A DNA stretch of 64,000 nucleotides, from contig JAUSEN010000007.1 of the NCBI GenBank assembly GCA_030650025.1, positions 9,472-73,471 on the forward strand, read 5' to 3'. Below the pieces are notes generated by a model, which had not been told where the DNA came from, did not search any database, and saw nothing but the letters and a program-made list of their open reading frames with translations. Made by a program: the position numbers and the translations under genes. Source of the stretch: Candidatus Magasanikiibacteriota bacterium (lineage in GTDB: Bacteria > Patescibacteriota > Patescibacteriia > Magasanikbacterales > GWA2-37-8). This document shows, piece after piece, positions 2,969-62,704 of the stretch (position 1 is the stretch's first letter; each line of letters starts with the position of its first letter).

Positions 2969-3098
2969 ATGATTTGACAAAATTATGCGATTCAACAGAA
3001 TCGTGTCGGGCAGTGCCTGCCTGCCCTGCCTACCGGACAGGCAGGCGGTAGGCAGGTCCTTTGAAGCCCGACCACGACCTTTGAAGCGCGATTTAAAA
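2969..3098 (-). promoter_or_regulatory. Copy of the recurrent structured 5' element: two GCTTCAAAGG boxes, GC-rich hairpins, then CACGATTCTGTTGAATCG ... GTCAAATCATATG
   Basis: Read on the minus strand: CGCGCTTCAAAGGTCG...GGGCTTCAAAGGACC...hairpin CTGCCTACCG/CGGTAGGCAG...CCCGACACGATTCTGTTGAATCGCATAATTTTGTCAAATCATATG. It is near-identical in layout to the copy upstream of tpiA. Confidence 0.5.
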
Positions 3099-4292: not shown

Positions 4293-4652
4293 CTACGCGC
4301 CAGTTTCGACAACAGCAGTAACAGGCTCGGCTTCGCTAACAGTTTTGGCGGCTTTTTTATCTGCCGCGGCGGCTTTTTTTTCGGCTGCTTTTTTGGCAGT
4401 GACAACCGCTTTTTTTACTTTCTTACCTTTACGCACGGCCGCGACCGCGGTTTTTTTGGCGGCGCGCTCGATAAATTTCTCGACGCGGCGAGCGGTATCG
4501 ACAAATTTTTGTTTGCCAGTATAAAAAGGGTGGCATTGATTGCAGAGTTCAACGCGGATTTCTTTAAGAGTAGAGCCCGTGGTAAAAGTATTGCCGCAGG
4601 CGCACGCAACTTTGGTATCAGTATTATATTCGGGGTGAATGTCTGGTTTCAT
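4293..4652 (-). CDS. rpmE: 50S ribosomal protein L31 with an approximately 50-aa Lys/Ala-rich C-terminal extension
   Basis: [10 protein letters not shown]...CACGNTF...[10 protein letters not shown] is the L31 Zn-ribbon signature. The ATG at 4652 sits in the CAAATCATATG context, and the ORF-track start further upstream is not supported. The tail is [38 protein letters not shown]. Confidence 0.8.
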
Positions 4653-4705
4653 ATGATTTGGCGAAATCACGTCGCGCAACGTCCTTTGAAGCGCGACGCA
4701 CAGGT
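4653..4705 (-). promoter_or_regulatory. Short copy of the recurrent 5' element upstream of rpmE
   Basis: Minus strand reads GCGTCGCGCTTCAAAGGACGTTGCGCGACGTGATTTCGCCAAATCATATG. Confidence 0.5.
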
Positions 4706-4799
4706 AAATTATTGAGTAGAGTTTAGCACGAGCGTTAAAAAATGTCAACGCCGCTATTGACAGCTTGGTGTTTTTGCTTTATACTAAGCCTACTTAATT

Positions 4800-5965: not shown

Positions 5966-6841
5966 ATGCCAATAAGTTCGGGGGACATCATGAAATTGCG
6001 CGCCCAGACTGGCGCGGGCATGATGGATTGCAAAAACGCTTTAGAAGAAGCCGGCGGCGACATGGACAAGGCGGGCGAGATCCTGCGCAAGAAGGGGATT
6101 GTGAAAGCCGCCAAGCGCGCGGATAAAATCGCGGCCGAAGGGTTGATTGTAATTGCAAAATCACCAGATTTAAAAGCCGCGGTGCTTGTCGAAGTAAATT
6201 CGGAAACAGATTTTGTGGGCGCTAGCCCGGATTTTAAAGCTTTGGCCGAAGCCATTGCCGAGGCCGCTTTAGAGAACAAAGCCGAGAGTGTTGAGGCGGC
6301 TCTAGGCGCTAAATTAGCTAGCGGTAAAACTGTGAGCGAAGCCATGAGCGAGATGAGTTTAAAAGTAGGAGAGAAGATTGGCGTGCGCCGAGCGGTGTTG
6401 GTGACCGCTAGCTCCGGAATAGTGGCTTCGTATATTCACGGCACTAAAATCGGCGTTTTAGTAGAGTTAGAAGGCGGCGCGGCTGATTTTGGAGCCGATG
6501 TTGCCATGCACGTCGCGGCGAGCAACCCTAAATATTTAAATCGTGAAGGGGCGGACCAGACTGATATTAACAAAGAAAAAGAAATTTACGCCGAGCAGTT
6601 GCGCGCGCAAAAGAAGCCGGAAAATATTATTGAGAATATCGTGAAAGGCAAGATAGATAAATATTTTGGCGAAGTCTGTTTGCTGGAACAGCCGTTTATT
6701 AAAGATGAAGAGACCACGGTCGGCAAACTCGCGGAAAAAAACAGCGCCAAAATTATACGTTTTATACGGATGGAACTGGGTGAGGGCATTGAGAAGAAGC
6801 AGACGGATTTTGCCGCCGAAGTTAAGGCGCAGTTGAAATAA
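5966..6841 (+). CDS. tsf: Elongation factor Ts
   Basis: N-terminal ...LRAQTGAGMMDCKNALEEAGGDMDKAGEILRKKG is the EF-Ts UBA-like signature. Gene order is rpsB-tsf. Confidence 0.9.
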   Translation: MPISSGDIMKLRAQTGAGMMDCKNALEEAGGDMDKAGEILRKKGIVKAAKRADKIAAEGLIVIAKSPDLKAAVLVEVNSETDFVGASPDFKALAEAIAEAALENKAESVEAALGAKLASGKTVSEAMSEMSLKVGEKIGVRRAVLVTASSGIVASYIHGTKIGVLVELEGGAADFGADVAMHVAASNPKYLNREGADQTDINKEKEIYAEQLRAQKKPENIIENIVKGKIDKYFGEVCLLEQPFIKDEETTVGKLAEKNSAKIIRFIRMELGEGIEKKQTDFAAEVKAQLK

Positions 6842-23191: not shown

Positions 23192-23257
23192 GCCGCGCTT
23201 CAATGGTCGTTCGCGACATCGCGAGAGACGTTGCACGGCACGATTTCGTTAAATCGT
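23192..23257 (+). promoter_or_regulatory. Copy of the recurrent 5' element upstream of tadE
   Basis: GCCGCGCTTCAATGGTCG-hairpin(TCGCGA..TCGCGA)-GTTGCACGGCACGATTTCGTTAAATCGTATG. Confidence 0.5.
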
Positions 23258-23698
23258 ATGCACATGAATAAGTGGCTAAAAAATAATTCTGGGCAAGCGC
23301 TGGCGGAAACAGCGCTTATTTTGCCGATTCTAATTTTTATATTGATGGGAATTTTTGTGGTCGGTTATTGGTTATACGCGCGCCAAGTAGTGATCGCGGC
23401 GGCGCGAGAGGGGGCGAGGATCGGTTCGCAAAGCGGAGACTGGGCCACGCTCGATGAGGCGGCGCGCATGGTTTTAAAAACTCTTGATGGGCGCCCGGAA
23501 AGTGAACGCATTAATATTACAGCTGTCACGGAACCGGACAATATTAGAGGCAGTACCCTGATTGTTGAGGTGAGTTATAAAATTCCGTTTAGCTTTAATT
23601 TTTTTAAAAATGCTTATGCGGAAAAAAATGAACCTTACTTGTTTGGAGAAGTTAGGGAGCAAGCGGTGGCGCGGTTGGAAACAGATTTTGCGGATTGA
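23258..23698 (+). CDS. tadE: TadE-like pilus assembly protein
   Basis: N-terminal TadE motif NNSGQALAETALILPILIFILMGIFVVGYWLYA. Confidence 0.65.
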   Translation: MHMNKWLKNNSGQALAETALILPILIFILMGIFVVGYWLYARQVVIAAAREGARIGSQSGDWATLDEAARMVLKTLDGRPESERINITAVTEPDNIRGSTLIVEVSYKIPFSFNFFKNAYAEKNEPYLFGEVREQAVARLETDFAD

Positions 23699-28037: not shown

Positions 28038-28089
28038 AAAGGGTATAATATTGTCAGTAATATTTTTTGACATAATTTCGTTAAATCAT

Positions 28090-28572
28090 ATGATTTTTCA
28101 AAAGCCAGCGGTTAAACAAAGTGATTTTTCTATTTCGGCCCATCCCGAAGAACCGGGAGCGATCCGCGATGAAGTGGAAACGGTCGTGGGGCCCTCGGTA
28201 AATGTGGAGGGTGATTTTGGTTCGGAAGGCAATATTGTGGTAAAAGGGACGGTATCGGGGAGCGTGCGCACCAGTAAGCATTTGTTTGTTGAAATGGGAG
28301 CAAAAATAATGGCCAATGTCAAGGCGGGCACATCAAAGGTATCGGGCGAGGTCAAAGGAAATATTAAGGTTAAAGACACGCTAGAGCTGACGGCTACGGC
28401 GCGCGTTCTTGGAGATATTGACGCCAAAATTTTAATTATTGAAGCCGGAGCCATAGTATCGGGGCGCGTTAGCATGCCAGGGCTCGAAGGGGTAGACGCC
28501 AAAGCCGCGCCGAGGCTCGCGCGCCTCGGAGCCAGACGCCTTTCTGAAGAAGCTCCGGCCGTGACGCTTTAA
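28090..28572 (+). CDS. Bactofilin
   Basis: Repetitive beta-helix pattern (VKGTVSGSVRTSKHLFVEMGAKIMANVKAGTSKVSGEVKGNIKVKDTLELTATARVLGDIDAKILIIEAGAIVSGRV). The ATG at 28090 is in the TTTCGTTAAATCATATG context. Confidence 0.75.
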   Translation: MIFQKPAVKQSDFSISAHPEEPGAIRDEVETVVGPSVNVEGDFGSEGNIVVKGTVSGSVRTSKHLFVEMGAKIMANVKAGTSKVSGEVKGNIKVKDTLELTATARVLGDIDAKILIIEAGAIVSGRVSMPGLEGVDAKAAPRLARLGARRLSEEAPAVTL

Positions 28573-29887: not shown

Positions 29888-32800
29888 ATGTTTTATCGCC
29901 GGTTCCAAAAAATACTTATTTCTATAGTAGCCCTGCAAATGATTATTATGCCGGTCGTTCCGGCGTTAGCAGATGAGATCACGTCAACCGGCACTTCCAC
30001 TCCGCCCGCTTTAGCCCCAGCAGAACCACCCAAAAAAGATGATTCGCCCTTTTCGGCCCGCCAACTTATGCGCGAGTACCAGTCGTTTATTAGCGCTGAA
30101 AAAAATAAAAATAATTCCGCCGCCAAAGTTGCCTTAGCCGGCAAATTAGACGCTTTGATGGAGAGTGAGAGTAAAAGTTTAAGCGCGCTCGGCGTCGATG
30201 CCGAACGCCAGGCGCGATATTTTGGCCAACTCCAAACCATGGCGGAAATTTTAGACCCGGCGCGCCAGAGTTTTGTAGACAAAAAAGTTGGCGATCTTAA
30301 GGCCTGGCTGGGCCTCAAAAAACCCGACCAGTCAACGGACGAAGCAAACCGTCCGGATATTGTCATACCCGCAAAACCAGCCAGTTTTAGATTCAACAAC
30401 GCGCCCATTGAACTGAACAAAATTAAACTGGGGGAGTATCCATCTATGGCCAAACGGTTATCGCTCCGCGCGCGGGTTCGCGATATATTTTCCATTGACC
30501 AAGCGCTGGCCGGCCCGCTCACTCTGCCCGTGCTGGCAGATGTAGAGCCGGATGGAGCGCAGGTGGTTAGCGCGGCGCAATTTACCGATCTGGCCCAATC
30601 GCTCCACAACAACCCGCTGGAAATATACAACTACGTCCGCCAGACCATTTCCTACGAAGCCTATTACGGCGCTAAAAAAGGCGCGCTCGGCTGTTTTAGA
30701 GAAAAATTTTGCAATGATGCGGACGCCAGTTCACTCCTAATCGCCCTTTTGCGCGCGGCCGGTATTCCGGCCCGCTATGTAAAAGGCGTGGCCGTACTGC
30801 CGGTAGAAACCGCCCGCCAGCTCGTGGGCGTGGACGAAACCAAAACCGCCTACGCCGCCCTGTACGCCAACCGCGTGCCGGTGTTTTTAGTGTCCGGCAA
30901 CAATGTGGGGCCCAATTACGATCAGGCTGATTTTTCTCAAGAAAAATACTTTGGCGTGGAGTGGGTGAGCGTGGAAGCCTTTTATGATTACGATGAACGA
31001 GGCGGCAATATCAACAACACGTTAAACCTCTCTACGGCCACCACCACTGAATCGCTCCAGGCCATTCTCCAACAGGCCAGCCCCGAAAAGCAGTGGATTC
31101 CACTTGACCCAATGGTTCAACCGTCCGTTCGCACGGTAAACGAAATCGTGGCCGATACCGCCCAATTTAATTCGCAAACATTTTGGAATGATTACCTTAA
31201 ATATCAAGGTCCGCTTTCGCCTCTCAACAAATACGCGGCGGATTTAAAAAACCAAACCAACAAAGATATTTTCTCCGACCAGTTCCAGTCCAGCGCCGCG
31301 CCCCAGTTTAGCGCCGCGCGCCTGCTACCTGCCACCTTGCCCTATAATTTTACCAGCGGCCTTAAAGATGGCGATTTGCCGATTGCCAAAGAATACTGGT
31401 CAATTCTGCCAAACGACCGCCAAGAAAAAGTTATTATTACGCTTAAGCGCGCCGGGAATAATGAAGCAGTGATAACGCATACCTTTTTAGCCAGCGAGGC
31501 CAACAACCAGCCGATTGATTTGTCTTACGCCGGTGCTACTCCGGATGACCAGGCGGTGATTGATGGCTACGGCGGCCTGGCCTACACTCCGGCCGCGTTG
31601 GTAGATATTTTGCCATCTTTCACCCTCGCCAACACTACGGTGCCGGGCAACATCAAGATGGCGATCGGGGATTCGCTCATTATGCAGTTTGAATATCAGA
31701 GCAACGGCCAAACGATTGAAACCAACCAAAAATTTTCCGTGGCCGGCAATGCCGAAGGTATTTATATGGCCTTTTCGCAAATCGTGCCCGACCCCTCGCT
31801 CGTAAACAATAGCCAAATTTTATTCGCCGGCAACGCGGCCATCGCCCGGGCCTATCTCAATCGTCTGGCGGCCGACAACGCGGTTCTGGCCAAATCGCTG
31901 GATTATCAGCTCAACACCGAGTTTGCGCGCGCCGTGGTTACGCAAAATCGCGTGCTCTCTAAAGTTAATGACATTCCCACCACCTTTGATTTTAAAGGCC
32001 TAACGATTGACGCGGGCGCGGTTATTAATGACTATTCGCGCCGCGGCAATTACAAAAATCATCGCCTAGATTTCCGCTTGCTTTCCGGCCAAAACGCCTC
32101 GTACTACGAAGGCCAGCTTTTCACCGATCTCGCGGGCTTAAACGGTATTTCTACCATCAAAGGCTTGCAATACGCCTACGCCAACCCCAACGACTATACC
32201 GTGCACACCATCACCAAGGCCAACGAGGCCGACATTGACGCGTTACAGCTCTCGGACAACACTAAACAAAACCTGCACAGCGAAGTGGCCAAAGGCAACA
32301 CTATCACCACGCCCAACAAACCCATTGCCAAGGGCGCGTTTACCGGTATTGTCTACACCAGCATCGCGCCAAACGGCACCGGCCTCTATGCCATTGGCGA
32401 GCAGGTGGCGAATGGGGGGTGGACCGTGAACCCGGTTGTGCTGGCGCAACTGCAGAGCGATGTTGATAACAGCGTACTAGAGAGTTTTCAGGTGGATGAT
32501 GGCAACAATACTTTTGTGTACCGGGATAAATTATCAGGCAGTATTGATTGTCGTATCAACAGCAATACTTTCGGACGCATTTTGGCCAATAAGGATAAGG
32601 CTGGCCAGCCGATTCCGGCTGGCGAGGCAGAATGGAAAACCCGCTATGGCTGGCCGTGCGTTGATGATAATGAGAACGGGCCATATAAGTTTGGAGATTA
32701 TGAGCATGATTTTTTGGTAGCTACTGATGGGGCCAAGTTCACCAGTCCGGGGAGGTATGAATACTGGGTTAATGATACTGCGGTTGAAAATCTTTTTAAG

Positions 32801-34336
32801 ACAAAATTTGACTTTAATAACGGTAATTATTCATTGCGAAATGTTCGTACATATTGGGGTACGTATATTTATAAAGAGAATTGGGAAACTCACAACTTGC
32901 GTGAGTTAGGCGTATATAATCCAGAGCACCGCAAGGTATATGAAATGCCGATTTTTAGGAATGGAGAAAAATACTTATCGGCGGATAAAATTGAAGGTAA
33001 ATTCGTGCCGGAATTGATTGGTTATCCAATGAGCGAAAATAAGACGGCGGCTCTTTCCCCAAACGGTACCGACGGCTACTATCAGCAATTTACCAACGGC
33101 ACTATGTATACCAGGCCATCTCTTTCAACGTTTTGGAAGTCACTGGTGGTCTATGGTAAATGGAACGATATCCATAACCAGCAGGGCGGTACGGGCGGTA
33201 TAGGTTTCCCGGATAGTGATACTTTTTTTGATCAGCCATATAATGCGATTATTCAGAAATTCGAGAAAAAGATTTGTTATGACAAGAATGGAATTATTTG
33301 CGAAAATAGAATTTGGAAAGCAGATTTTCAGAGAGGATTGGATTCGTTTTATGACTCTTTCCAATTAATGAGTGTTGCCTATACCATATATAAAAATAAT
33401 GTCATGCAAGAAAGTTACGCGCAATTTTTGGTCGCAGTAGATTTAGCCAATGATACTCGGGAGGAAAGAAAGAACCTGTGTTATCTTTACAATGCTGAAT
33501 ATTCTCAACCCCTCTTTCTCTACCCCGCTCTCTATGCGGACGCGCAATGCGTTTTTCCCAAAAGCTTGGCTTATTACCAATCTAAGAAAGCGGATGCGCA
33601 GAATAAAATTAACGACCTCGGTCAAAAAACTACCGCCAGTGTTCAACAAGCTGAACAACTACACCTTTCGTTGGTGAGCCAGGTAGAAAATGGCGTTCAG
33701 ACTCCGTTTGAGTGGCTCGGTTTTATGGTGGTGGACTTGGGGACAGTGGTAGTTGGTCCCGCCTCCAAACTGGGTGTCAACGCCGCGAAACAGGTCGCTT
33801 TGAAAATGACCGCACGCTATGGCGCGGAAATTATGTCGGCGCGGATTAATCGTGCGCTTCTAATGAAGGCCACGAAGAAAGCGGCTGAAAGAGAGCTGGC
33901 ACAGCAGGGCGCCGCCGCCACCGAGTCGGCGCTGGAGGTACGATTGGAAAGAGCGGTATTAGGAGAGTTAAAGGGGGCGGGATTGGCTTATGTTGAACGG
34001 CGAGGTATAAAAGTGCCGATGGATTTGGCAAAACAGTTGCCTGGGAAGTGGTATAAATCAACTTCTTCTGATGTCGTGGATAGTTTTGCGAAACATTGGC
34101 AGAAACACGGAGTATTAGAGATGGAAAAGAAAAAATTGCCTCTTAAGACAATCCAAGAGTATTTTGATGATTCGAAGAATTTTTATAATCAGTATAAAGG
34201 ATTAAAAACTTCTGTAACACTTGACGATTTGACCGAAGGTATATTAATTAGACAGCCAGGGCAACCGGGCGGCTATTTTACCGGTCCCGGTCATCCGATG
34301 GGTGAAGGGCTAGCGGTTACTTTTTGGTATTTCTAG
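29888..34336 (+). CDS. Giant secreted protein (1482 aa) with a transglutaminase-like cysteine protease core
   Basis: N-terminal signal/anchor MFYRRFQKILISIVALQMIIMPVVPALA. Transglutaminase-like core GALGCFREKFCNDADASSLLIALLRAAGIPARYVKG. The start is in the AAATCATATG context. Confidence 0.6.
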   Translation: MFYRRFQKILISIVALQMIIMPVVPALADEITSTGTSTPPALAPAEPPKKDDSPFSARQLMREYQSFISAEKNKNNSAAKVALAGKLDALMESESKSLSALGVDAERQARYFGQLQTMAEILDPARQSFVDKKVGDLKAWLGLKKPDQSTDEANRPDIVIPAKPASFRFNNAPIELNKIKLGEYPSMAKRLSLRARVRDIFSIDQALAGPLTLPVLADVEPDGAQVVSAAQFTDLAQSLHNNPLEIYNYVRQTISYEAYYGAKKGALGCFREKFCNDADASSLLIALLRAAGIPARYVKGVAVLPVETARQLVGVDETKTAYAALYANRVPVFLVSGNNVGPNYDQADFSQEKYFGVEWVSVEAFYDYDERGGNINNTLNLSTATTTESLQAILQQASPEKQWIPLDPMVQPSVRTVNEIVADTAQFNSQTFWNDYLKYQGPLSPLNKYAADLKNQTNKDIFSDQFQSSAAPQFSAARLLPATLPYNFTSGLKDGDLPIAKEYWSILPNDRQEKVIITLKRAGNNEAVITHTFLASEANNQPIDLSYAGATPDDQAVIDGYGGLAYTPAALVDILPSFTLANTTVPGNIKMAIGDSLIMQFEYQSNGQTIETNQKFSVAGNAEGIYMAFSQIVPDPSLVNNSQILFAGNAAIARAYLNRLAADNAVLAKSLDYQLNTEFARAVVTQNRVLSKVNDIPTTFDFKGLTIDAGAVINDYSRRGNYKNHRLDFRLLSGQNASYYEGQLFTDLAGLNGISTIKGLQYAYANPNDYTVHTITKANEADIDALQLSDNTKQNLHSEVAKGNTITTPNKPIAKGAFTGIVYTSIAPNGTGLYAIGEQVANGGWTVNPVVLAQLQSDVDNSVLESFQVDDGNNTFVYRDKLSGSIDCRINSNTFGRILANKDKAGQPIPAGEAEWKTRYGWPCVDDNENGPYKFGDYEHDFLVATDGAKFTSPGRYEYWVNDTAVENLFKTKFDFNNGNYSLRNVRTYWGTYIYKENWETHNLRELGVYNPEHRKVYEMPIFRNGEKYLSADKIEGKFVPELIGYPMSENKTAALSPNGTDGYYQQFTNGTMYTRPSLSTFWKSLVVYGKWNDIHNQQGGTGGIGFPDSDTFFDQPYNAIIQKFEKKICYDKNGIICENRIWKADFQRGLDSFYDSFQLMSVAYTIYKNNVMQESYAQFLVAVDLANDTREERKNLCYLYNAEYSQPLFLYPALYADAQCVFPKSLAYYQSKKADAQNKINDLGQKTTASVQQAEQLHLSLVSQVENGVQTPFEWLGFMVVDLGTVVVGPASKLGVNAAKQVALKMTARYGAEIMSARINRALLMKATKKAAERELAQQGAAATESALEVRLERAVLGELKGAGLAYVERRGIKVPMDLAKQLPGKWYKSTSSDVVDSFAKHWQKHGVLEMEKKKLPLKTIQEYFDDSKNFYNQYKGLKTSVTLDDLTEGILIRQPGQPGGYFTGPGHPMGEGLAVTFWYF

Positions 34337-37280: not shown

Positions 37281-37317
37281 AAGAATAACAAAATTTTAAT
37301 CCTTGGCAATAAATTGT

Positions 37318-40300
37318 ATGGAAACCATCCCTCAAAAATACGCCAGCCAGTTCCGCCGTTTTGTTTCACTGCAAATTATTGCCGGAATGATAATAAGTCT
37401 GGCCGGGCCGTTTGCTCCGGCGGTTTTGGCCGCTCCGGTTGCCAAAACCAAGCCCGCTCCGAGCGCTCTGCCGCCGTCATCCGCGAGCGCGGAACCGGTT
37501 GACTGGTCCGCCGTGGATTGGGATTCAGCAATCGTAACGATCGCCGATCAGGAAAAATTTGTATCTGCCAGGCAAGCTTTGGCCGAACAGGGAAAGGCGG
37601 CCGAGGCCAAGGCGCTCGAACCAGCGCAAACGCTCCTTAGCGACGACGCGCTGATGAAAAAGAGCGGCGTGCCCGAGGCGGCACAGATTCTGGTGCGAAA
37701 TTATCGCGAGGCAATAAAAGATTTGGGGGCTGATAAGGCGAGCGCGGCGCGCCATTCTGCGGAGCGCGAATATCTTAAGAATGCTTTACGCGTTCTTTTC
37801 CCATCCATTGCCAAACAGGATAAATTGCCGAAGGATCAGGTGATTGATTTCCGCGCGGCTCCGCGCCTCCACCCGCGCTCGGCTCAAGGAGTCAAAATAC
37901 TCAATGTCAAACCAACCGTTAAAGTTATCAATCAAACCACGGCGCCTCAATCCGCCCAAATTTTGCGCGGCGCGACAGTGCGGCAATTGCGCGCGCTTAA
38001 ACAAAAAGATTATTCTCTCCCGGCCGATACCAAACCGGTTTCTGTTCAGAACAGTGGAATTTTGCGCGCCTTCTTTGACAGCCTGTTTAGTATTCCGGCC
38101 GCGAACGCCGCCACGCCCATTATCGCCTACAGCAATGGCATAGAAAAAAAACCGCTTGATTATGCTCTGTACTATCTGGCTAACCAGCAAAATCCCGATG
38201 GCAGTTTTGGCATTGTTGATCCCTATATCAATACTATGGCGGCGCTAGAGCTGTTGGTTGATACCAATCGCACCAACAACGATCAGTACACGAGCGCGTT
38301 AAACTATTTACAGCAAACCGCGCCAGCCAATAATCGTGAAATTGCCACCCAGGCGCGCCTTTTGTTTGGCATTGGCAAAGCGCCGTCTGCCAACATCCTG
38401 CTAGACGGCTTAATGCCCAGCCAAAACAGCGACGGTGGTTTTGGCGTTTTGCCCGGCTATCAAAGCGATCTAGATTCAACTCTGGCCGCCGCCTTAGCGA
38501 TGGCGGCGGGCAATTACAGTATGAATGATAAGTTTCCCAAGACTATGGTATTTGTAGTCAATCACATTCCCGATTCTGGCGAACTGCGCTACACGGCCGA
38601 CAGCAACCCCAATTATTACCTTATCAATCAAACCGCGCAACAACTGGCGCCGTTTGCCGGGCTCACGGTTAGCGATGGACAAAACCAGGTAACCGTCCAG
38701 TCTAAAATTGACGCGCTGTTAAATTATTTGCGCTTCCAATACGACCCGGCCGAACAAAAATTGTTGGGCGCGGACGCAGCCGATAATATTATGACGCTGG
38801 AAACGTGGCGGCTTTACGGCGTAGAAAAACCTTCGGCCGCTGTTTTAGAAAAAATCGTATTAGAAAGCCAATTCGGCGATGGGTCGTTCGCTGATTCTTT
38901 CCCGATGGCCGCGCACGCCATCTACGCCCTGGCCGCGCCGGATATAATTATTACCAACGCCGCGCCCGACAATAATTTAGTTAACTATAGCGCGGCTGGT
39001 TTTTCGCTGACTATTATCAACAATGGCTACGCCACTCTAGCCACTAGCACGCTCTATTTGTTTGTGGACAATGTAGAAACCGGCCAAAATATCAACCTTC
39101 AGGATGATCAAATTACCATTTTGCCTAACCAAACTCTGCAGCTGCGCGTTACTTACCCCGACACCCCCGGCTGGATTGGCGATACTGAATTGCGCTGGTA
39201 TTTGGAAGGCGAGCGGGATTTAAATTATGACGACAATTGGTTGGTTAAAAATTTTGCGGTCGCGAGCGAGGCCAACGGCAAACCGGCTCTCCCTGGCTAT
39301 TTTTCCGTGTTTAAATATGATTATGATGGAATGCCGGCGATTATCGCCGGCATTCCGGCCAGCAAAACCGATCCTAACCGCAAGGGCTATGGACTGCTGT
39401 TTCGCCCTAAAGGATTGCCCGATTGGGAATATATGCCGTATGATCCAAAATACGTCATTATCGCTGGATTCCCCGAAGGCGCCGAGTATGAATTTACGAT
39501 CGGCGTAATAGATTTGGGCGGCGCGATTAGATATTATGACCAGCCGGTTACGGTAAAATTTTCAGCCGACAGCAGTAAATACAATGGCGCTCTGGAGGGG
39601 CGAATAACGCTGGACAATGCCGGCCACTCCGGCCTCTCATTTTTTGTGCAAGGCCAAGACACTTCACGGCCGGACGAAAACGGCGATTGGTTCAGCACCA
39701 CCAGTCCCAATGGGCGCGTGGCGGCGTGGAGTTTGGACAAAATGAATCAGGAATTGCGTTCTACCTTTGATGTCGCGCCCGGCGCCACCACTACTCCGGC
39801 GCGGATATTTACGCATCTAAAAGAAGACGCGGCCGCCCCGGTTATAGCTGGATTTGAAATTCGCTTTAAGCAGAATTTTATCGTCAAAAACCAAAAAGAA
39901 GTGGACCTGTACGCCTGGGGAAGCGATAATGTCGCGCTTAAGGAAGCGGATTTTTATTTGTGGAATCCGGCTGACAGCGCTTGGAGTTTTCTCGGCACCC
40001 AAGCGATCCCCGACAGCACAGCCTTATTTAAATGGTACGTGCCGGCGGATTTATTGGGCGAAAATTATAAAGTGAAGGCGATATTTTGGGATTACCGCGG
40101 CAACCAGTCGCTGGCCAAAGAATGGGGGCCGTTTAAAATTATTGACGGCACCGCGCCAACCTTTACCGTTACCGCGCCCGCCGCCGGCTTGCCCTGGGAG
40201 CTGGGCAAGCCGCAAACCATCGCCTGGACCACTTCTTCCACTAACCCGGTCAATTTTGTGAATATCGTTCTGCGCTACAGCCCGGTGGCGACCGAATTTC

Positions 40301-42186
40301 TTGCCGCCAACACGGCTAACTCTGGCACCATGGTTTGGACTGTGCCGACCAGTTCGTGGTATGCCGGAAAAAATGTTACGCTGGAAATCAGCGGCACTGA
40401 CAGCGGCAACTTTGAAACCGGAACGTCAGTTAGCGCGCCATTTGATATTTTAGATACCTTGGCAAATCCGCCCGCTCCTTGGGGCGCGCCCGAGGTTTGG
40501 CTGAACGACCAGGAAAATCGCAGTGTGTATTTAAGCAAATCCGAAGTGGCCATAAGTTCGGACTCGGCTGGCAGTGATCATTTAGTGTACAAGGTGACGG
40601 CCGATAATAATTTTGCCAGTCCGCGCGTAATTACCGAACAGCTTTGGTATCGTCAAAAAACTGACGGTTTTTGGTCGCAAGCGATAAAAATATATGAAAC
40701 AGTTTTGGCCACCGACAATAATTTGACGGGGTACGCGCCAATTAACAGTTTAGCGATGGCCTTGAATTCGGCCCACGTTCCGAGCTTAGTTTGGAAAAAA
40801 GGCAGTTCCGGCAGTTGTCTTGACTACAATAGCACGGAAATCTTTTTTGCGTCTTTAAATAAACAAACTGGGCAATTGGATGCTCCGCTAAACATATCCA
40901 ATAATGTCAGCGATTCCCAGGCGCCCCAGATTAGCGCCAGCCAAAGTGGATCAGTGCAGACCGCTTGGCTCGACGGCCGCGTTTGGGACGACCAGTGCTC
41001 GGTAACCGGCACGCTAACCGTCCGCTACCGAGAGTTGACTGATAATGTTTGGTCTGGAGTGGAGCAAATCGGCAACAATGTGCCCCTTTATAACCCGCGT
41101 CTGGCCACTTTAGGCTCTGTAGTGTATCTTGGCTATAACAACGATCAAAGCGTTGTCAGCCTGGCGCGCCGCGAGGCCGGCGTTTGGGGGACACCGGTAA
41201 ACCTATTGGCACCTGGCGGCAGTCTGCAGGACTTTAATTTCGCGGCCGGCATCAATAATGATCTGCATCTGGCCATGACCTTGTTTTCGTACGATCCGAA
41301 TCTCAAAAAATACTACAATCAGATTTCCTATCGGACTTTTGCCAACGGCGTCTTTGGTCCGGCTGAAGCTGTCGCTACCACCGTGCCCGGGACAAATGAC
41401 AGCCTTTATCGTCCGCTGATTGCCGTTGATCAAAATGGCGTGCCGCATGTGCTGTATGAACATTATTACAATCCGGGTGGTCGGTTTGAGCCGCGCTATA
41501 CGGCGCGTTGGCCGCTTGGTTCCTGGGCCGCGTCCCAGCCGGCGGCGCGCGCCAGCAATAATGTGAGCGGGCATCATCTGGGCTTTTCTTATCAGCCGGT
41601 TTCGCGCCAGCTGACGGCCGCCTGGCTCGATGGCTATGCCAGAGCCGACGAGGTTTTTGTAAATAATGCCGCTCCGCCATCCGCCACGGCCATAATCTAC
41701 GAAGACGCCGAAGACGGCGATACGGTGGGGTGGAAGCTTTACGCTCCCGGGTTTTCCGGCACTTATTCCATTGCTAACGTAGCCGATGATAAGGCGCACG
41801 GCCGCGCTTTGGAAGTTAAAACCAGCTATATTGAAAATGATTATTGGCTGAAGAATCCGGACGGTTCCAACTGGAATGACACTGTTTCCAAATATCTCCA
41901 ATGGGACGTTAAAACCAGTCGGGAGTTTTATGCTCTGGTTCACGTGGAAACTAATCTCGGCCCGCGGCATTTGCAGTACTCGTCAAAATATCCGAATAAA
42001 GTTTTGGGCTCTTATATTTACCTCAACCTTTCGCCGAGTCTTAAAGACGGAAGTTGGCACACCCTTACCCGCGATTTGCAGGCCGATGCCGCCTTGCTCG
42101 TGCCGGGTATTGTGATTACCAAAATTAATAGTTTCTCGGTGAGCGGTTACAGCGCGCGTTTTGATAATATTATCGGGCTTAAGTAG
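37318..42186 (+). CDS. Giant extracellular protein (about 1622 aa) with prenyltransferase/terpenoid-cyclase-like alpha/alpha-toroid repeats
   Basis: N-terminal anchor/signal (FVSLQIIAGMIISLAGPFAPAVLAA). Repeated Q-x-x-DG-S/G-FG motifs (QNPDGSFG, QNSDGGFG, QFGDGSFA). The ATG at 37318 is preferred over the TTG at 37303. Confidence 0.55.
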   Translation: METIPQKYASQFRRFVSLQIIAGMIISLAGPFAPAVLAAPVAKTKPAPSALPPSSASAEPVDWSAVDWDSAIVTIADQEKFVSARQALAEQGKAAEAKALEPAQTLLSDDALMKKSGVPEAAQILVRNYREAIKDLGADKASAARHSAEREYLKNALRVLFPSIAKQDKLPKDQVIDFRAAPRLHPRSAQGVKILNVKPTVKVINQTTAPQSAQILRGATVRQLRALKQKDYSLPADTKPVSVQNSGILRAFFDSLFSIPAANAATPIIAYSNGIEKKPLDYALYYLANQQNPDGSFGIVDPYINTMAALELLVDTNRTNNDQYTSALNYLQQTAPANNREIATQARLLFGIGKAPSANILLDGLMPSQNSDGGFGVLPGYQSDLDSTLAAALAMAAGNYSMNDKFPKTMVFVVNHIPDSGELRYTADSNPNYYLINQTAQQLAPFAGLTVSDGQNQVTVQSKIDALLNYLRFQYDPAEQKLLGADAADNIMTLETWRLYGVEKPSAAVLEKIVLESQFGDGSFADSFPMAAHAIYALAAPDIIITNAAPDNNLVNYSAAGFSLTIINNGYATLATSTLYLFVDNVETGQNINLQDDQITILPNQTLQLRVTYPDTPGWIGDTELRWYLEGERDLNYDDNWLVKNFAVASEANGKPALPGYFSVFKYDYDGMPAIIAGIPASKTDPNRKGYGLLFRPKGLPDWEYMPYDPKYVIIAGFPEGAEYEFTIGVIDLGGAIRYYDQPVTVKFSADSSKYNGALEGRITLDNAGHSGLSFFVQGQDTSRPDENGDWFSTTSPNGRVAAWSLDKMNQELRSTFDVAPGATTTPARIFTHLKEDAAAPVIAGFEIRFKQNFIVKNQKEVDLYAWGSDNVALKEADFYLWNPADSAWSFLGTQAIPDSTALFKWYVPADLLGENYKVKAIFWDYRGNQSLAKEWGPFKIIDGTAPTFTVTAPAAGLPWELGKPQTIAWTTSSTNPVNFVNIVLRYSPVATEFLAANTANSGTMVWTVPTSSWYAGKNVTLEISGTDSGNFETGTSVSAPFDILDTLANPPAPWGAPEVWLNDQENRSVYLSKSEVAISSDSAGSDHLVYKVTADNNFASPRVITEQLWYRQKTDGFWSQAIKIYETVLATDNNLTGYAPINSLAMALNSAHVPSLVWKKGSSGSCLDYNSTEIFFASLNKQTGQLDAPLNISNNVSDSQAPQISASQSGSVQTAWLDGRVWDDQCSVTGTLTVRYRELTDNVWSGVEQIGNNVPLYNPRLATLGSVVYLGYNNDQSVVSLARREAGVWGTPVNLLAPGGSLQDFNFAAGINNDLHLAMTLFSYDPNLKKYYNQISYRTFANGVFGPAEAVATTVPGTNDSLYRPLIAVDQNGVPHVLYEHYYNPGGRFEPRYTARWPLGSWAASQPAARASNNVSGHHLGFSYQPVSRQLTAAWLDGYARADEVFVNNAAPPSATAIIYEDAEDGDTVGWKLYAPGFSGTYSIANVADDKAHGRALEVKTSYIENDYWLKNPDGSNWNDTVSKYLQWDVKTSREFYALVHVETNLGPRHLQYSSKYPNKVLGSYIYLNLSPSLKDGSWHTLTRDLQADAALLVPGIVITKINSFSVSGYSARFDNIIGLK

Positions 42187-42858: not shown

Positions 42859-43407
42859 ATGACGCACGCTGGAAAAGCATTAATTGATCCCCATCCAGTT
42901 TTTGCGGCTGTCGGGTTAGCGCCGGGGATGCGCGTCGCGGATTTAGGTTGCGGGCGCACAGGCCATTTTGTGTTTCCCGCTTCCAGAGTGGTGGGGGAGA
43001 GCGGCCTCGTGTACGCGGTTGATATTATTAAAGATATTGTGGAGAGTATCGCTGGCCGGGTCCGCACGGAAGGTTACACCAACGTCCAAACTGCCTGGGG
43101 CGACATTGAGCGCGTGGGGGTCCTCCCCATACCGACCGGCACCATTGACGTCTGCTTCATGGTTAATGTAGTATTCATGCTTAAGGATAAATTAGGAGCC
43201 TGCCAAGAAGCGAAGCGGATTCTTAAAAGTAATGGGTTTTTGGTGGTAGTGGATTGGGTAAGGCGGCTCGGGCCGCTGGGGCCCACACCAGAGCAAATGC
43301 TAAACCCGGATATTCTAGAAAAAATGTTGATCACTGAAGGTTTTAGCAAGGTTTCGCAAATAGCAGTAGGCGACTACCATCTGGCTTATATTTATAAGAA
43401 AAATTAA
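42859..43407 (+). CDS. Class I SAM-dependent methyltransferase
   Basis: Motif I VADLGCGRTGHF and motif II-like LVYAVDI. Confidence 0.65.
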   Translation: MTHAGKALIDPHPVFAAVGLAPGMRVADLGCGRTGHFVFPASRVVGESGLVYAVDIIKDIVESIAGRVRTEGYTNVQTAWGDIERVGVLPIPTGTIDVCFMVNVVFMLKDKLGACQEAKRILKSNGFLVVVDWVRRLGPLGPTPEQMLNPDILEKMLITEGFSKVSQIAVGDYHLAYIYKKN

Positions 43408-43498
43408 GCGTCGCGCTTCAATGGACGTTGCGCGGGTCGAGTTTTAAAGGACGCAACTCGACACAATTTCGTTAAATTGCATTATCTCGTCAAATCAT
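43408..43498 (+). promoter_or_regulatory. Copy of the recurrent 5' element
   Basis: GCGTCGCGCTTCAATGGACGTTGCGCGG-hairpin(GTCGAGTT-ttaaaggacgca-ACTCGAC)-ACAATTTCGTTAAATTGCATTATCTCGTCAAATCATATG. Confidence 0.5.
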
Positions 43499-43891
43499 AT
43501 GAGTTTTAAAAATTTATTGCATTGGTCATACTGGATTAATCAGCCCTGGCCAGCCGAAGGCTTGGTCTTTAAAGTGTTGGTGGTTATTTTTTTGGCTTTG
43601 GTGCTGGGCGGTTTTTTGGCTTTAATTTTTAGCCAGCGCCAGCTCCCCGCTCCGCAAAAAAAATTACTGCAACGCCTAACCAGCTATGGTGTTTATATGG
43701 GTTTGGCTGGTTTAATTTGGCTCGGGTTTAGGCAGGAGCAAGTGGCTTTGTTAGGTTCGCGTTTTTGGATGCTGATTTGGGCGGTAGTATTTGTGAGGTG
43801 GTCACAGCAGATTTTAAAATATATTATTTGGCGCTTGCCAGAGGTAAAAAAAGAGCAAGCGGCCAAAGCGGCTAAAGAGAGATATTTATAA
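43499..43891 (+). CDS. Hypothetical membrane protein
   Basis: Two or three TM helices. It is preceded by the conserved leader element. Confidence 0.45.
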   Translation: MSFKNLLHWSYWINQPWPAEGLVFKVLVVIFLALVLGGFLALIFSQRQLPAPQKKLLQRLTSYGVYMGLAGLIWLGFRQEQVALLGSRFWMLIWAVVFVRWSQQILKYIIWRLPEVKKEQAAKAAKERYL

Positions 43892-44276: not shown

Positions 44277-44388
44277 CAGCGCGGTTTTTTTTTGTTATAC
44301 TGTGACCAGTTTTAAATTTACATTAAGGAAGCGTCGAAACTAACTGTGGTTAGTTTCGACGTGAATTTCCTTGCGAAAGAAAATTCAT

Positions 44389-60539: not shown

Positions 60540-61829
60540 ATGCATAAATTTTTTAATTTAAATAATGGCGTTACGCTTATTACGGTGCCAGTTGCCGGAA
60601 CTCGAGCCACGACGGTACTAGCCATGTTTCCGGTGGGGTCGCGTTACGAATCTAAAAAACTTTCCGGCGCTTCGCATTTTTTGGAGCACATGCTTTTTAA
60701 AGGCACGAGCAAGCGCCCGGAGGCGATTGATATTTCGCGCGAACTAGAAGCGGCGGGCGCCGAGTATAATGCTTTTACTAACAAAGACTATACCGGCTAC
60801 TATGTTAAAATCGCCGCGACTAAGCAAGAATTGGCGTTTGATACGATCGCGGACATGATTTATAACTCCAAGATCGAGCCGGCCGAAGTCGAGAAGGAAA
60901 AGGGCGCGATTGTGGAGGAATTGCGCATGTATAAAGACAACCCCACTATGGCGGTCGACATGCTGTTTGATTCGGTAATTTTTGGCGATACGCCGCTCGG
61001 GTGGGATATTGGCGGCACGCCCGATAGCGTCCGGGCCATAACGCGCGCGGAGCTTTGGGGTTATTATCAGGAGCATTACAGCCCCAAAAATATGGTGCTG
61101 TCCGTGGCTGGCAAGATTGACGCTAAATTAAAAAAATACTTAAATAATTTTTTAGCGAAGCCAGCTTTAGCCGGGGCGCATACGACGGAATATTATAAAA
61201 AGAATTTTTCTAAAATGGTTTGGCCGCGGAAAGCGCCCGCGCTGGAAAAGCGCGTGGCCGTGGAAGAGCGCAAGGCGGACCAGGCGCATTTGATTTTGGG
61301 GTTCCCGGGCCTTCCTAATACCAGCCCGGAGCGCTACGCCGTTGCTTTGCTTTTGAATATTCTAGGCGGGGGGATGAGTTCGCGTTTATTTATCGAAGTG
61401 CGCGAGAAGCGCGGACTCGCTTATATGGTGCAGGCTGGTTCTTCAACTTTTCGCGATGTTGGGGTAGCGTATGTGCAGGCGGGGCTTGACCCAGCGCGCC
61501 TTAAGGAAGCGCTCCAGGTAATAAAAGGGGAGCTCCTCCGAATAGCGGCCGAGCCAGTTACCGCCGAAGAGCTCAAAAACGCCAAAAGTTGTATTTCGGG
61601 CGCGATGGCCTTGAGTTTGGAGAATAGCCGGGTGCAGGCCGAGTGGTTTGCCAAGCAGTTTTTATTTAATGCTAAAATAGAAACTCCGGAACAAGTTATT
61701 AAGAAAATGATGGAAGTTACCACTACAGATGTTTTAAGGGTGGCAAAAAAAATATTTGTACCAGAGGCGATGCGTGTGGCTTTAATCGGCCAAATTAATA
61801 AAAATAAAGTTCTGTCTTACCTAACTTAA
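60540..61829 (+). CDS. M16 family (insulinase/pitrilysin-like) zinc peptidase
   Basis: Inverted zinc motif HFLEHMLFKGT (HxxEH). Confidence 0.7.
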   Translation: MHKFFNLNNGVTLITVPVAGTRATTVLAMFPVGSRYESKKLSGASHFLEHMLFKGTSKRPEAIDISRELEAAGAEYNAFTNKDYTGYYVKIAATKQELAFDTIADMIYNSKIEPAEVEKEKGAIVEELRMYKDNPTMAVDMLFDSVIFGDTPLGWDIGGTPDSVRAITRAELWGYYQEHYSPKNMVLSVAGKIDAKLKKYLNNFLAKPALAGAHTTEYYKKNFSKMVWPRKAPALEKRVAVEERKADQAHLILGFPGLPNTSPERYAVALLLNILGGGMSSRLFIEVREKRGLAYMVQAGSSTFRDVGVAYVQAGLDPARLKEALQVIKGELLRIAAEPVTAEELKNAKSCISGAMALSLENSRVQAEWFAKQFLFNAKIETPEQVIKKMMEVTTTDVLRVAKKIFVPEAMRVALIGQINKNKVLSYLT

Positions 61830-61834
61830 GTAAC

Positions 61835-61921
61835 GCCGCGCTTCAAAGGAATGCGAGCCGAGCTTCAAAGGACACTGCTCGGCACGATTCTGTTGAATCG
61901 GGCATGAATTCGTCAATTCAT
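61835..61921 (+). promoter_or_regulatory. Copy of the recurrent 5' element upstream of tpiA
   Basis: GCCGCGCTTCAAAGGAATGC-hairpin(GAGCCGAGC-ttcaaaggacact-GCTCGGC)-ACGATTCTGTTGAATCGGGCATGAATTCGTCAATTCATATG. Confidence 0.5.
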
Positions 61922-62704
61922 ATGAACGAGACCAAGAAATTGTATTTGTTTGCCAATTGGAAGATGTATTTGGGTTTAGAAGCCAGCTATGTTTTGGCAA
62001 AAAATATTAAAGAAGAATTGGCTAATTTAAATAACGGCATTACCATGGCCGTGTTTCCTTCGACTCTGGCTTTGGCATCGGTGGCCGCGGAGTTGAAGAG
62101 CACGACAATTAAAGTCGGCGCGCAAAATGTTTATTGGGTGCCAGAAGGCGGGTATACGGGCGAAGTTTCCGCCGAGATGTTCGCGGCCACGGGGGCAGAG
62201 TACGCGCTTATCGGCCATTCGGAAAGGCGTCATCAGTGCCATGAAACTAACCACGAAGTACGCCAGAAAATTGAGGCGGCGCTAACCGCTGGTCTTACGC
62301 CCGTGATTTGCATTGGCGAAACTGCCAGCGAACGTGAAGCCGGGTCAACAGCAGAAGTAATTGAAACGCAGTTGCGCTCGGCTCTCGGCGCACTGGCCTG
62401 GCGAGATGGCCTGCCTCTTCTCATAGCTTATGAACCAGTGTGGGCGATTAGCCGCGGCGTTAACAAGCCCGGAGGCCATTGCAGCGCGGTGGAAGCCGGG
62501 AAGATGCATGCCGTGGTTGAAAAAATTGCCCGCGAACTCACCGGCATCGCTCCGGCTGTGCTTTACGGCGGGAGTGTGCGCCCGGAAACCATTGCGGAAT
62601 ATTTGGCTACCCCTCATATCGCGGGAGTTTTGGTGGGGGCGGCGGCGACAAAATTTTCTAGTTGGTCCGAAATTACGGCGGCCGCGGTAGAGGCCTGGCG
62701 TTAG
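61922..62704 (+). CDS. tpiA: Triosephosphate isomerase
   Basis: KKLYLFANWKMY and active-site blocks. The ATG at 61922 is preferred on the CATATG leader context, and the ATG at 61904 is an in-frame alternative. Confidence 0.85.
   Translation: MNETKKLYLFANWKMYLGLEASYVLAKNIKEELANLNNGITMAVFPSTLALASVAAELKSTTIKVGAQNVYWVPEGGYTGEVSAEMFAATGAEYALIGHSERRHQCHETNHEVRQKIEAALTAGLTPVICIGETASEREAGSTAEVIETQLRSALGALAWRDGLPLLIAYEPVWAISRGVNKPGGHCSAVEAGKMHAVVEKIARELTGIAPAVLYGGSVRPETIAEYLATPHIAGVLVGAAATKFSSWSEITAAAVEAWR

Follow-up and report, generated by a model that had tools for sequence, protein, structure and literature searches.

Precedents for a repeat that is fused to the start of genes come from Neisseria, where REP2 repeats give the 5′ untranslated region, the ribosome-binding site and the ATG to approximately 14 genes (Delihas 2011, PMC3184786). 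Other repeats are known to sit within proteins in frame (Delihas 2011, PMC3184786), and REP-type hairpins protect from exonucleases (PMC3184786). Here we describe an element of about 44 nucleotides (nt) that consists of two hairpins and lies immediately 5′ of six genes, among them tpiA, in a 64,000-nt stretch of the genome of a Candidatus Magasanikiibacteriota bacterium (assembly GCA_030650025.1, contig JAUSEN010000007.1, positions 9,472 to 73,471); this whole stretch is referred to as the window. We favour the view, as the one that is probably correct, that the element is a dispersed structured repeat resembling REP2 and the RPE of Rickettsia, which is tolerated or mildly useful as a leader. 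The family appears to be previously undescribed, since literature searches with sequence strings and on repeats of the Candidate Phyla Radiation (CPR), Shine-Dalgarno (SD) usage and RNA motifs returned nothing relevant beyond precedents in other taxa.

An earlier note, made from the letters of the window alone, had listed six copies of a shared architecture upstream of unrelated genes, and all six are present at the coordinates and on the strands that it gave. Each copy is on the coding strand of its downstream gene, and its last hairpin runs to position -1, counted from the ATG. For the box GCTTCAAWGGWC, 7 occurrences in the window stand against 0.97 expected, all of them at the six sites. 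When a covariance model (R1) built from independent copies in other genomes was used to scan the whole window with filters off, only these six loci scored, at 67.7, 67.2, 57.2, 29.2, 27.9, 27.6 and 21.5 bits, and the next matches had E values of 0.05 or worse. The downstream genes are indeed unrelated: Pfam assigned GNAT, L31, TadE, bactofilin and TIM domains to five of them, and the sixth, encoding a putative membrane protein, had no Pfam match. Three window copies start 0-12 nt from the stop codon of the preceding gene, and the genes upstream of three copies encode RF-1, a methyltransferase and an M16 peptidase (Pfam).

The core comprises a GC-rich hairpin of 7 base pairs (hairpin 1), a spacer A and an AU-rich hairpin of 6-7 base pairs (hairpin 2). 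The loop of hairpin 1 is a conserved 13-nt UUCAAWGGACRNU and the loop of hairpin 2 is YGYY; in this genome hairpin 2 is followed by a T and then by the ATG. Composite copies contain an additional hairpin-1 unit, which is often truncated, and one additional hairpin-2 unit, with up to two additional hairpin-2 units in relatives. The copy upstream of tpiA (plus strand) is of this composite type. It begins 5 nt past the stop codon (61827-61829) of the M16 peptidase gene with a truncated first unit (CGCCGCGCTTCAAAGGAATGCGA, 61834-61856), in which the box is present and its own 3′ arm absent, and to which R1 gave a partial match (61839-61855). The complete 44-nt core follows at 61857-61900 (67.2 bits, E 7e-18): the arms of hairpin 1 (61857-61863 and 61877-61883) enclose the loop TTCAAAGGACACT (61864-61876), the spacer A is at 61884, and hairpin 2a (CGATTC-TGTT-GAATCG) occupies 61885-61900. 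A further hairpin 2 (2b, ATGAATT-CGTC-AATTCAT, 61904-61921, R1 13.5 bits) has its 3′ arm ending at -1, the start codon is at 61922-61924, and the TIM domain runs from residue 9 of the 61922 open reading frame (ORF). What had been read as CACGATTYYGTTRAATCG is present but is itself a hairpin with covarying arms, and the optional GTCAAWTCAT, which is likewise there, is the 3′ half of a second copy of hairpin 2.

Conservation of pairing rather than of letters characterizes both stems. In the window copies alone the arms of hairpin 2 read CGATTC/GAATCG, CGATTT/AAATCG, TGATTT/AAATCA and CAATTT/AAATTG. Across 47 distinct 44-nt cores, which align without gaps, 94.7% of helix cells were paired compared to 87.1% in shuffled sets and 22-46% when the partners were slid, and two-sided changes were found at 6 of the 7 pairs of hairpin 1 and 3 of the 6 pairs of hairpin 2. 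In all, 9 helix pairs changed on both sides and Watson-Crick pairs accounted for 96% of helix cells; although the search pattern had fixed some columns, the covarying columns were not among them. Beyond the helices, position 18 in loop 1 is coupled to position 35 in loop 2 (GC in 43, AU in 23 and GU in 1 of 67 distinct cores, with none unpaired). When all 946 column pairs were ranked by mutual information, helix pairs and 18:35 took the first 8 places, the best non-structural pair reaching 0.31 versus 0.84. Since C17-G36 is invariant and 18:35 is coupled, the two loops are likely joined by a two-base-pair contact, the C17-G36/R18-Y35 mini-helix. Extension of this contact to 16:37 was rejected because the two positions are A.C in 26 of the 47 cores, and a pairing of the box with hairpin 2, which appears in the minimum-free-energy folds of the tpiA and GNAT composites, was set aside because C10 stands opposite A39 in half of the family. 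The 18:35 rule is also kept in three copies with nested hairpins. Loop 1 carries such additional GC-rich hairpins at a single fixed position, between GGAC and RNT (window 3016-3055, minus strand, and 23209-23229, plus strand; locus L021, 4658-4717); they may be a variable arm of the fold itself, or else a second small palindromic repeat with this position as its insertion site. In the predicted folds hairpin 2 is paired up to -1 or -2 and the AUG is open. The folded species is probably RNA rather than single-stranded DNA.

We analyzed the distribution of the element with a strict pattern scan of one genome per species, which returned 92 loci and, being exact, undercounts divergent copies. About 70 of these are from assemblies labelled Magasanikbacteria, Nomurabacteria, Paceibacterota, Kaiserbacteria, Saccharibacteria, Minisyncoccia or "Patescibacteria group"; the labels are those of the records, some of them evidently wrong, and the remaining loci are chance matches in other phyla. 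Applied to the 92 loci, R1 gave 97 matches in at least 34 Patescibacteria-labelled assemblies and 90 full-length copies, with 11 loci in the assembly SICD01 and 7 in CAZVEC01. The strict pattern had no matches in 2.9 million IMG/VR viral contigs. At the gathering threshold, Rfam 15 matched only 3 tRNAs in the window, a permissive Rfam scan of 61800-61960 gave one spurious miRNA match (E 0.68), and ARAGORN made no tRNA-like call on the element.

The family is patchy, as established for tpiA loci and for density, on loci rather than whole genomes. Among 80 tpiA orthologues (proteins 40-57% identical) with their flanks, 355 kb in total, the element precedes tpiA in only one (locus L102), which has the composite architecture of the window with few base differences, including one compensatory pair; in the other orthologues inspected the spacer from stop to ATG is usually about 5-25 nt and AT-rich. 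These 355 kb contain 3 elements, all docked at start codons, before tpiA, an M16 peptidase gene and glyS, compared to 6 loci in the 64-kb window, and abundance varies more than 10-fold between related genomes. Modules also appear to be exchanged. In two orthologous LemA loci, with flanks approximately 88% identical, one hairpin-2 module differs by eight substitutions and a 3-nt indel, all of them paired and with position 18 changed to match, while the adjacent module is identical; this looks less like point mutation than like a module exchanged as a block for that of another copy. Between loci, 9 recurrences of identical cores were counted, seven of these in one assembly. In CAZVEC01, labelled Saccharibacteria (loci L004, L022, L040, L069, L072, L074 and L077), the core lies within a larger palindrome of a second repeat, GAGGTCGGACCTC; its seven pattern loci contain eight cores scored by the covariance model (two in L040, and a divergent second one in L077), of which six are identical and that of L004 differs.

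Placement relative to genes divides the copies into three classes. The first is fused to start codons: the end of 19 of the 90 copies lies exactly 1 nt ahead of the ATG that opens a long ORF, compared to 0.4% expected from random positions in the same loci, and a further 19 of the 90 are docked after 1-2 additional hairpin-2 units (1.3% expected). In total 38 of 90 copies are docked (about 1-2% expected), and in the window all six are. Of the outcomes that the earlier note had named as speaking against it, the one that the copies are fragments of one mobile element with terminal repeats largely holds: they belong to one dispersed repeat family, although terminal inverted repeats were not found. 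Ribosomal proteins account for 10 of 41 docked genes (L18 twice, L22 twice, L6 twice, L24, L33, S20 and L31; the loci are not mutually independent), and GroEL, IleRS, TrpRS, GlyRS and UvrA are also docked. In Magasanikbacteria-type assemblies (the window, SICD01, JAHFHV01 and three metagenome loci) the copies are almost all of this class, and an orthologue of the membrane-protein gene of the window, in locus L031, also has a docked copy. It was further observed that ribosomal-protein operons carry docked copies before rplV, rplX, rplF and rplR (L014 and L036, both on SICD01000017.1; L034; L027), with at least two cistrons of one operon carrying them, a pattern seen in three or four assemblies.

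The second class, of which the window has no member, lies in frame within proteins. About 20 copies occupy long ORFs in the sense orientation and share one frame throughout, encoding (G/S)RAS(M/K)DGARHD(S/F)A(E/K)S, a hydrophilic peptide of approximately 15 amino acids. The hosts are LeuRS, a ClpB/C-type ATPase, RuvC (2 genomes, same site), UppS, KsgA, FtsK (2), Pgk, ATP synthase gamma, TrmD (2, same site), MgtE and RecA. Compared to PDB 1php, the Pgk copy is a clean 13-amino-acid insertion between a helix and a strand, and the TrmD copy is a loop insertion that corresponds to a gap in 4mcb. Of the reading frames of the core, one has an internal TGA and the other two are open but overlap neither the stop codon nor the start codon beside the element. 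In-frame copies are 20 sense to 1 antisense, even though one antisense frame is open. The exception is a composite copy that is antisense but in frame in Fmt (L077, 990-1733), where both repeats are translated in frame (...LIQQNHVAQCPLKRDPRSDLEE..., and again PRSDLEE). Copies at the same site in different assemblies were seen in RuvC (L033/L047), TrmD (L044/L090) and FtsK (L001/L004). The RuvC pair shows compensatory stem changes (GCCGCGC/..GCGGC versus GCCGTGC/GCACGGC; GATTC/GAATC versus GATTT/AAATC), and since the amino-acid changes track the nucleotide changes, the constraint looks to be at the level of the nucleotides and not of the peptide. The third class lies in spacers in either orientation: at least 7 copies are antisense to both flanking genes (including those for a glycosyltransferase, RecG, a beta-CASP RNase and TrmD), and some spacer copies abut terminator-like hairpins. 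Internal copies are not followed by ATG.

The start context of the genome bears on how docking should be read. As had been claimed, none of the six genes has a functional SD sequence, but this is a trait of the whole window, in which SD-like words precede 4 of 50 other genes; the GGA of loop 1 lies at least 29 nt from the AUG. We also rejected an SD presented in the loop with the AU hairpin bridging the distance, in the manner of T4 gene 38, because the W of AAWGGA varies (AUGGUC, AUGGAC), the residual spacing is about 13 nt and the stem is in the way. The 50 window genes without the element have T at -1 in 44 cases and predominantly A/T at -4 to -6 (for instance the starts at 5966, 6933, 15850, 29888, 51120 and 55081). 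With U at -1, the initiator tRNA could pair further, through its A37. AAATCAT, the 3′ arm of hairpin 2, equals the generic start context, so a copy flush with the ATG keeps the start context intact, and the genomic context explains part of the docking. The shorter context AAATCRTATG, which the earlier note had noticed at further genes, is enriched (26 versus 9.9 expected), but compared to shuffles the regions with it were unstructured at four of the five genes tested (z 0.41, 1.21, -0.24 and -0.61), and the fifth, 15850, had z -1.53 (14 of 200 shuffles). The short context looks to be mostly the genome-wide start context, or decayed remnants, and not the element. One of the genes with it, 29888, has the context AAATCATATG and no structured element; it is one of two very large ORFs that lie close together (29888-34336 and 37303-42186, plus strand; 1482 and 1627 amino acids).

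Annotated starts are affected by the element itself. The ORF list extends genes into it at 23231, 28051 and 61904, because the element has one open frame in register with the downstream gene, as well as an ATG or GTG in the 5′ arm of hairpin 2. We considered this upstream in-frame ATG as the true start and rejected it, since the triplet varies (ACG, ACA, ATA, CTG, GTG) and covaries with the 3′ arm. At rpmE, the docked ATG fits the canonical N-terminus of L31 (Pfam positions 1-63) and is thus the true start. Exact-sequence look-ups of TpiA from either candidate start gave no record.

Promoter-like sequences place the element within transcripts. At rpmE, TTGACA-17-(TG)TAAACT (4720-4748, minus strand; 10 of 12 matches plus the TG) lies upstream of the copy, so that the whole element is within the 5′ leader; at the bactofilin gene a TATAAT (28044-28049) lies just upstream of the copy, and glyS in L129 has a promoter-like site upstream of its element. 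Together with the intercistronic copies, these sites make the element part of an mRNA leader or intercistronic spacer. In the divergent spacer between rpmE and the 4965 gene (4720-4785), promoter-like sites stand back to back, TTGACA-17-TAAACT on the minus and TTGACA-17-TATACT on the plus strand. The leaderless-mRNA promoter that had been suggested finds no support, given these positions, a -12 to -7 region that is TCGYTA-like and not -10-like, and the three copies near stop codons; nor do stems that vary in sequence while keeping their pairing fit an operator for a global regulator. We regard as highly improbable a signal acting at the DNA level, whether as a promoter for leaderless or short-leader transcripts or as an operator to which a global transcription factor binds in double-stranded form. 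Two composites do contain weak sigma-70-like matches (9 of 12), in which the 3′ arm of hairpin 1 (NCGACA) could be taken as a -35 and the CATAAT or CATTAT that begins the second AU hairpin as a -10, ending 13 nt before the ATG; however, such matches are absent from the tpiA, tadE and rpmE copies, the promoters upstream of the element at rpmE and the bactofilin gene are better, the coupling of 18:35 points to a folded single strand, and the element also occurs within ORFs. By contrast, the suggestion of an RNA structure at the initiation site agrees with what we see, a recurrent structured element that abuts the start codon and is transcribed with the gene.

Cleavage of such a transcript is another way to explain its position. 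The element could punctuate RNA processing, with tRNA-processing or other RNases acting on a T-loop-like hairpin, a second helix and a single "discriminator" nucleotide, and cutting to leave a leaderless mRNA that starts at or 1 nt before the AUG. Docked copies across the CPR have exactly 1 nt between the last helix and the AUG, three of the window copies lie between cistrons, and the loop of hairpin 1 starts with UUCAA, which we take to be like a tRNA T-loop. We nevertheless consider processing very unlikely: neither ARAGORN nor Rfam found anything tRNA-like, essential mRNAs would be lost if the in-frame internal copies were cut, the -1 and -4 to -6 context is conserved in genes lacking the element, which speaks for leadered rather than leaderless initiation here, and the "discriminator" T of this lineage is paired with A28, which lengthens the helix.

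What follows about function we infer from the sequence, and this holds too for how the copies spread and for whether, and how strongly, translation or stability is raised or lowered. On the reading as a dispersed repeat, the six elements would be copies of one small structured family dispersed in Patescibacteria (CPR), whose modules duplicate in tandem and exchange between copies, and whose surviving copies would be those fused to starts, those in frame and sense in housekeeping proteins, and those in spacers in either orientation. In this genome the element, judging by the promoter positions, is transcribed as the last 35-125 nt of a leader or intercistronic spacer, and the 3′ arm of its last hairpin supplies an A/U-rich -7 to -1 with U at -1, so that the gene stays translatable. 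The GC hairpin may be a barrier to upstream ribosomes and RNases. Since the weak AU hairpin reaches -1 or -2, in the exit path of the 30S subunit, loading of the subunit requires this hairpin to open; a cis-acting gate or damper on initiation is thus its most likely role, rather than the recruitment of ribosomes.

A dedicated role is a rival to this, although we think it rather unlikely: the element would be a cis-regulatory RNA, a portable SD-independent translation module that is recognised by a conserved trans-factor and co-regulates about 10% of genes. The UUCAAWGGAC loop might be read by an RNA-binding protein, or recognition might fall to the ribosome or a small ligand, and binding would open or lock the AU hairpin beside the AUG. 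The exact spacing to the AUG agrees with this proposal, as do the invariant loops with their covarying tertiary pair, the tolerance of nested hairpins at one site of loop 1 only, and a genome without SD sites that needs some other start signal. So does the identity of the docked genes, which are enriched for ribosomal proteins, GroEL and aminoacyl-tRNA synthetases and in some cases are the same in different assemblies (L22, L18, L6, LemA, tpiA and the membrane protein). Yet the element is read through in frame in RecA, Pgk, LeuRS, TrmD and others and is antisense in spacers, 79 of 80 tpiA orthologues and 50 of 56 window genes initiate without it, no coherent regulon emerges from the downstream genes, G.U pairs show no enrichment, and there is no Rfam match. 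Rather unlikely, too, is the broader proposal of an undescribed functional RNA module of Patescibacteria, in which a T-loop-like hairpin kisses a tetraloop hairpin and the fold is recognised by a conserved trans-factor or the CPR ribosome, domesticated and not selfish. If this were true, highly expressed genes would have in the module a portable signal for starting or gating translation independently of SD, and in the in-frame copies of RecA, Pgk, LeuRS and other proteins this module would act on elongating ribosomes or on the fate of the mRNA.

Several observations weigh against the interpretation that we favour, namely a repeat that is tolerated or only mildly useful. No terminal inverted repeats or clean target-site duplication were found at the copies (shared word of the flanks 3.53 versus 3.21 +/- 0.09 in controls), and no transposase is encoded among the eight neighbouring ORFs scanned, so that spread is deduced from distribution and not from mechanism. 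The sequence is near-identical in assemblies whose labels name different CPR classes, and the stems of the window copies differ yet pair, which indicates continuing selection on the fold, unlike pure junk. Docking in 38 of 90 copies is too precise for random insertion, the enrichment of docked genes for ribosomal proteins favours a useful role in translation, and the 20 to 1 excess of sense over antisense in-frame copies suggests an orientation constraint at the level of RNA. The RNA-level fold has its own difficulty, since helix mismatches are A.C in 15 cases and G.U in 6, and the usual excess of wobble pairs is missing.

The remaining window copies vary in completeness. The rpmE copy is a single complete core (4654-4697, minus strand, 67.7 bits), GTCGCGC-TTCAAAGGACGTT-GCGCGAC-G-TGATTT-CGCC-AAATCA, followed by T at 4653 and the ATG at 4652-4650, with the Ribosomal_L31 domain at residues 1-63; the L31 protein (4293-4652, minus strand) has 119 amino acids, with a C-terminal extension of approximately 55 amino acids beyond that domain. 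The GNAT composite (2969-3090, minus strand; R1 27.6, 11.5 and 9.0 bits, fold z -5.0) lies downstream of the RF-1 gene and is made up of a truncated first unit (3090-3073), hairpin 1 arms at 3072-3066 and 3011-3005, the box (3065-3056), a nested GC-rich hairpin in loop 1 (3055-3016), hairpins 2a (3003-2988) and 2b (2986-2969) and the ATG (2968-2966). In the tadE copy (23192-23257, plus strand, 27.9 bits, ATG at 23258), the arms of hairpin 1 (23192-23198 and 23233-23239) have one C.A mismatch, the box TTCAATGGTC is at 23199-23208, a small nested hairpin is at 23209-23229, and hairpin 2 (CGATTT-CGTT-AAATCG, 23241-23256) is followed by T at 23257. The bactofilin copy (28053-28089, plus strand, 21.5 bits, ATG at 28090) had been listed as partial: it retains hairpin 2 (ATAATTT-CGTT-AAATCAT, 28072-28089), but hairpin 1 is degenerate (GTCA...TGAC) and the box is lost. 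The membrane-protein composite (43412-43498, plus strand, 29.2 and 57.2 bits, ATG at 43499) begins directly past the stop codon of the methyltransferase gene (ORF 42859-43407) with a first hairpin unit (43412-43434), continues with the complete core GTCGAGT-TTTAAAGGACGCA-ACTCGAC-A-CAATTT-CGTT-AAATTG (43436-43479) and ends in a degenerate hairpin 2b (43481-43498). At 44324-44388 (plus strand), ahead of ORF 44389, a strong unrelated hairpin, AAGGAAGCGUCGAAACUAAC-UGUG-GUUAGUUUCGACGUGAAUUUCCUU (z -5.3), and an AU hairpin lie in succession, the latter flush with the ATG. The box is missing, R1 gives no more than 8.7 bits and Rfam has no match; this could be a ribosomal-protein leader or a very divergent relative.

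These findings matter because Patescibacteria make up a large share of bacterial diversity, with tiny genomes and very few known regulators or non-coding RNAs, and the element is an apparently undescribed repeat family with a conserved three-dimensional fold. In some lineages it stands at the start region of approximately 1 in 10 genes, including ribosomal-protein operons; in others it adds a 15-amino-acid peptide to RecA, Pgk, LeuRS, TrmD and other essential proteins. Gene callers are misled, as at 23231, 28051 and 61904, where ORFs run into the element, and counts of "CPR-specific insertions" in protein alignments are inflated by it. It is also a ready marker for strain typing, a handle on translation start in CPR genomes that lack SD sequences, and a case in which the domestication of small repeats as leaders can be put to the test.

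Several further identities were considered and rejected. A DNA uptake sequence does not agree with copies that are true insertions with covarying stems, and their density is too low; a dif/Xer site or integron attC (GGTGCGC...GTTAAAT) has the wrong spacing for the element, which has many copies, some of them in ORFs. An IS200/IS605-type PATE was set aside because the two hairpins of the element are unlike one another and orientation follows the gene and not the GC skew (the two copies on the minus strand are in a region where the skew is unchanged). A MITE (a miniature transposable element with inverted repeats) would have terminal inverted repeats and a target-site duplication, neither of which the element has: the core ends GCCGCGC... 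and ...AAATCA are not inverted repeats of one another, and the flanking inverted repeat GAGGTCGGACCTC in one Saccharibacteria-labelled metagenome-assembled genome belongs to the second repeat.

Compared with described families, the element shares with Neisseria REP2 (the contact-regulated element) that it is dispersed, has internal stem-loops, lies directly 5′ of many unrelated ORFs and is fused to the translation start. REP2, however, has its own promoter, ribosome-binding site and ATG in about 120-150 bp and is confined to one genus, whereas the element has 44 nt and none of these, occurs in several CPR lineages and is also found in frame; it has no SD and no consistent promoter, and its internal copies lack an ATG. 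The REP and BIME repeats of Enterobacteria and Pseudomonas (REPINs) resemble it as short GC-rich imperfect palindromes with compensatory changes and tandem mosaics, which are transcribed in operons and affect mRNA stability. They differ in lying 3′ of or between genes in both orientations, with a 5′ GTAG-type tetranucleotide, a RAYT gene and a single imperfect palindrome, whereas the element consists of two unlike hairpins and no RAYT was found among the eight neighbouring ORFs scanned. Nor do REPs have a second AU hairpin, a loop-loop pair, start docking or in-frame copies, all four of which the element has. In the account given in PMC3184786, the RPE of Rickettsia (Ogata et al. 2000) is a hairpin repeat that lies in frame in essential genes, which it does not disrupt, is translated as an extra surface peptide and is also found in non-coding DNA; as described there it is 105-146 bp long, restricted to Rickettsia and not docked at starts, and the likeness, which is one of description, concerns in-frame copies found in relatives only. 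Since taxon and length differ, homology is unlikely. MIRU (Supply et al. 1997), as summarised in the same source, has 40-100 bp and lies between operon cistrons in the sense orientation, cotranscribed and with ends that touch stop and start codons. The small ORF that overlaps these codons in MIRU for translational coupling and its tetranucleotide direct repeats, as far as that summary describes them, have no counterpart in the element, and a coupling ORF of this type was rejected from the analysis of its frames. By analogy, then, Neisseria REP2 is the closest precedent for the start-fused class, RPE for the in-frame class and MIRU for the intercistronic copies. The element itself, with its many unrelated loci, lineage-variable abundance and compensatory hairpins, is a small dispersed structured repeat.

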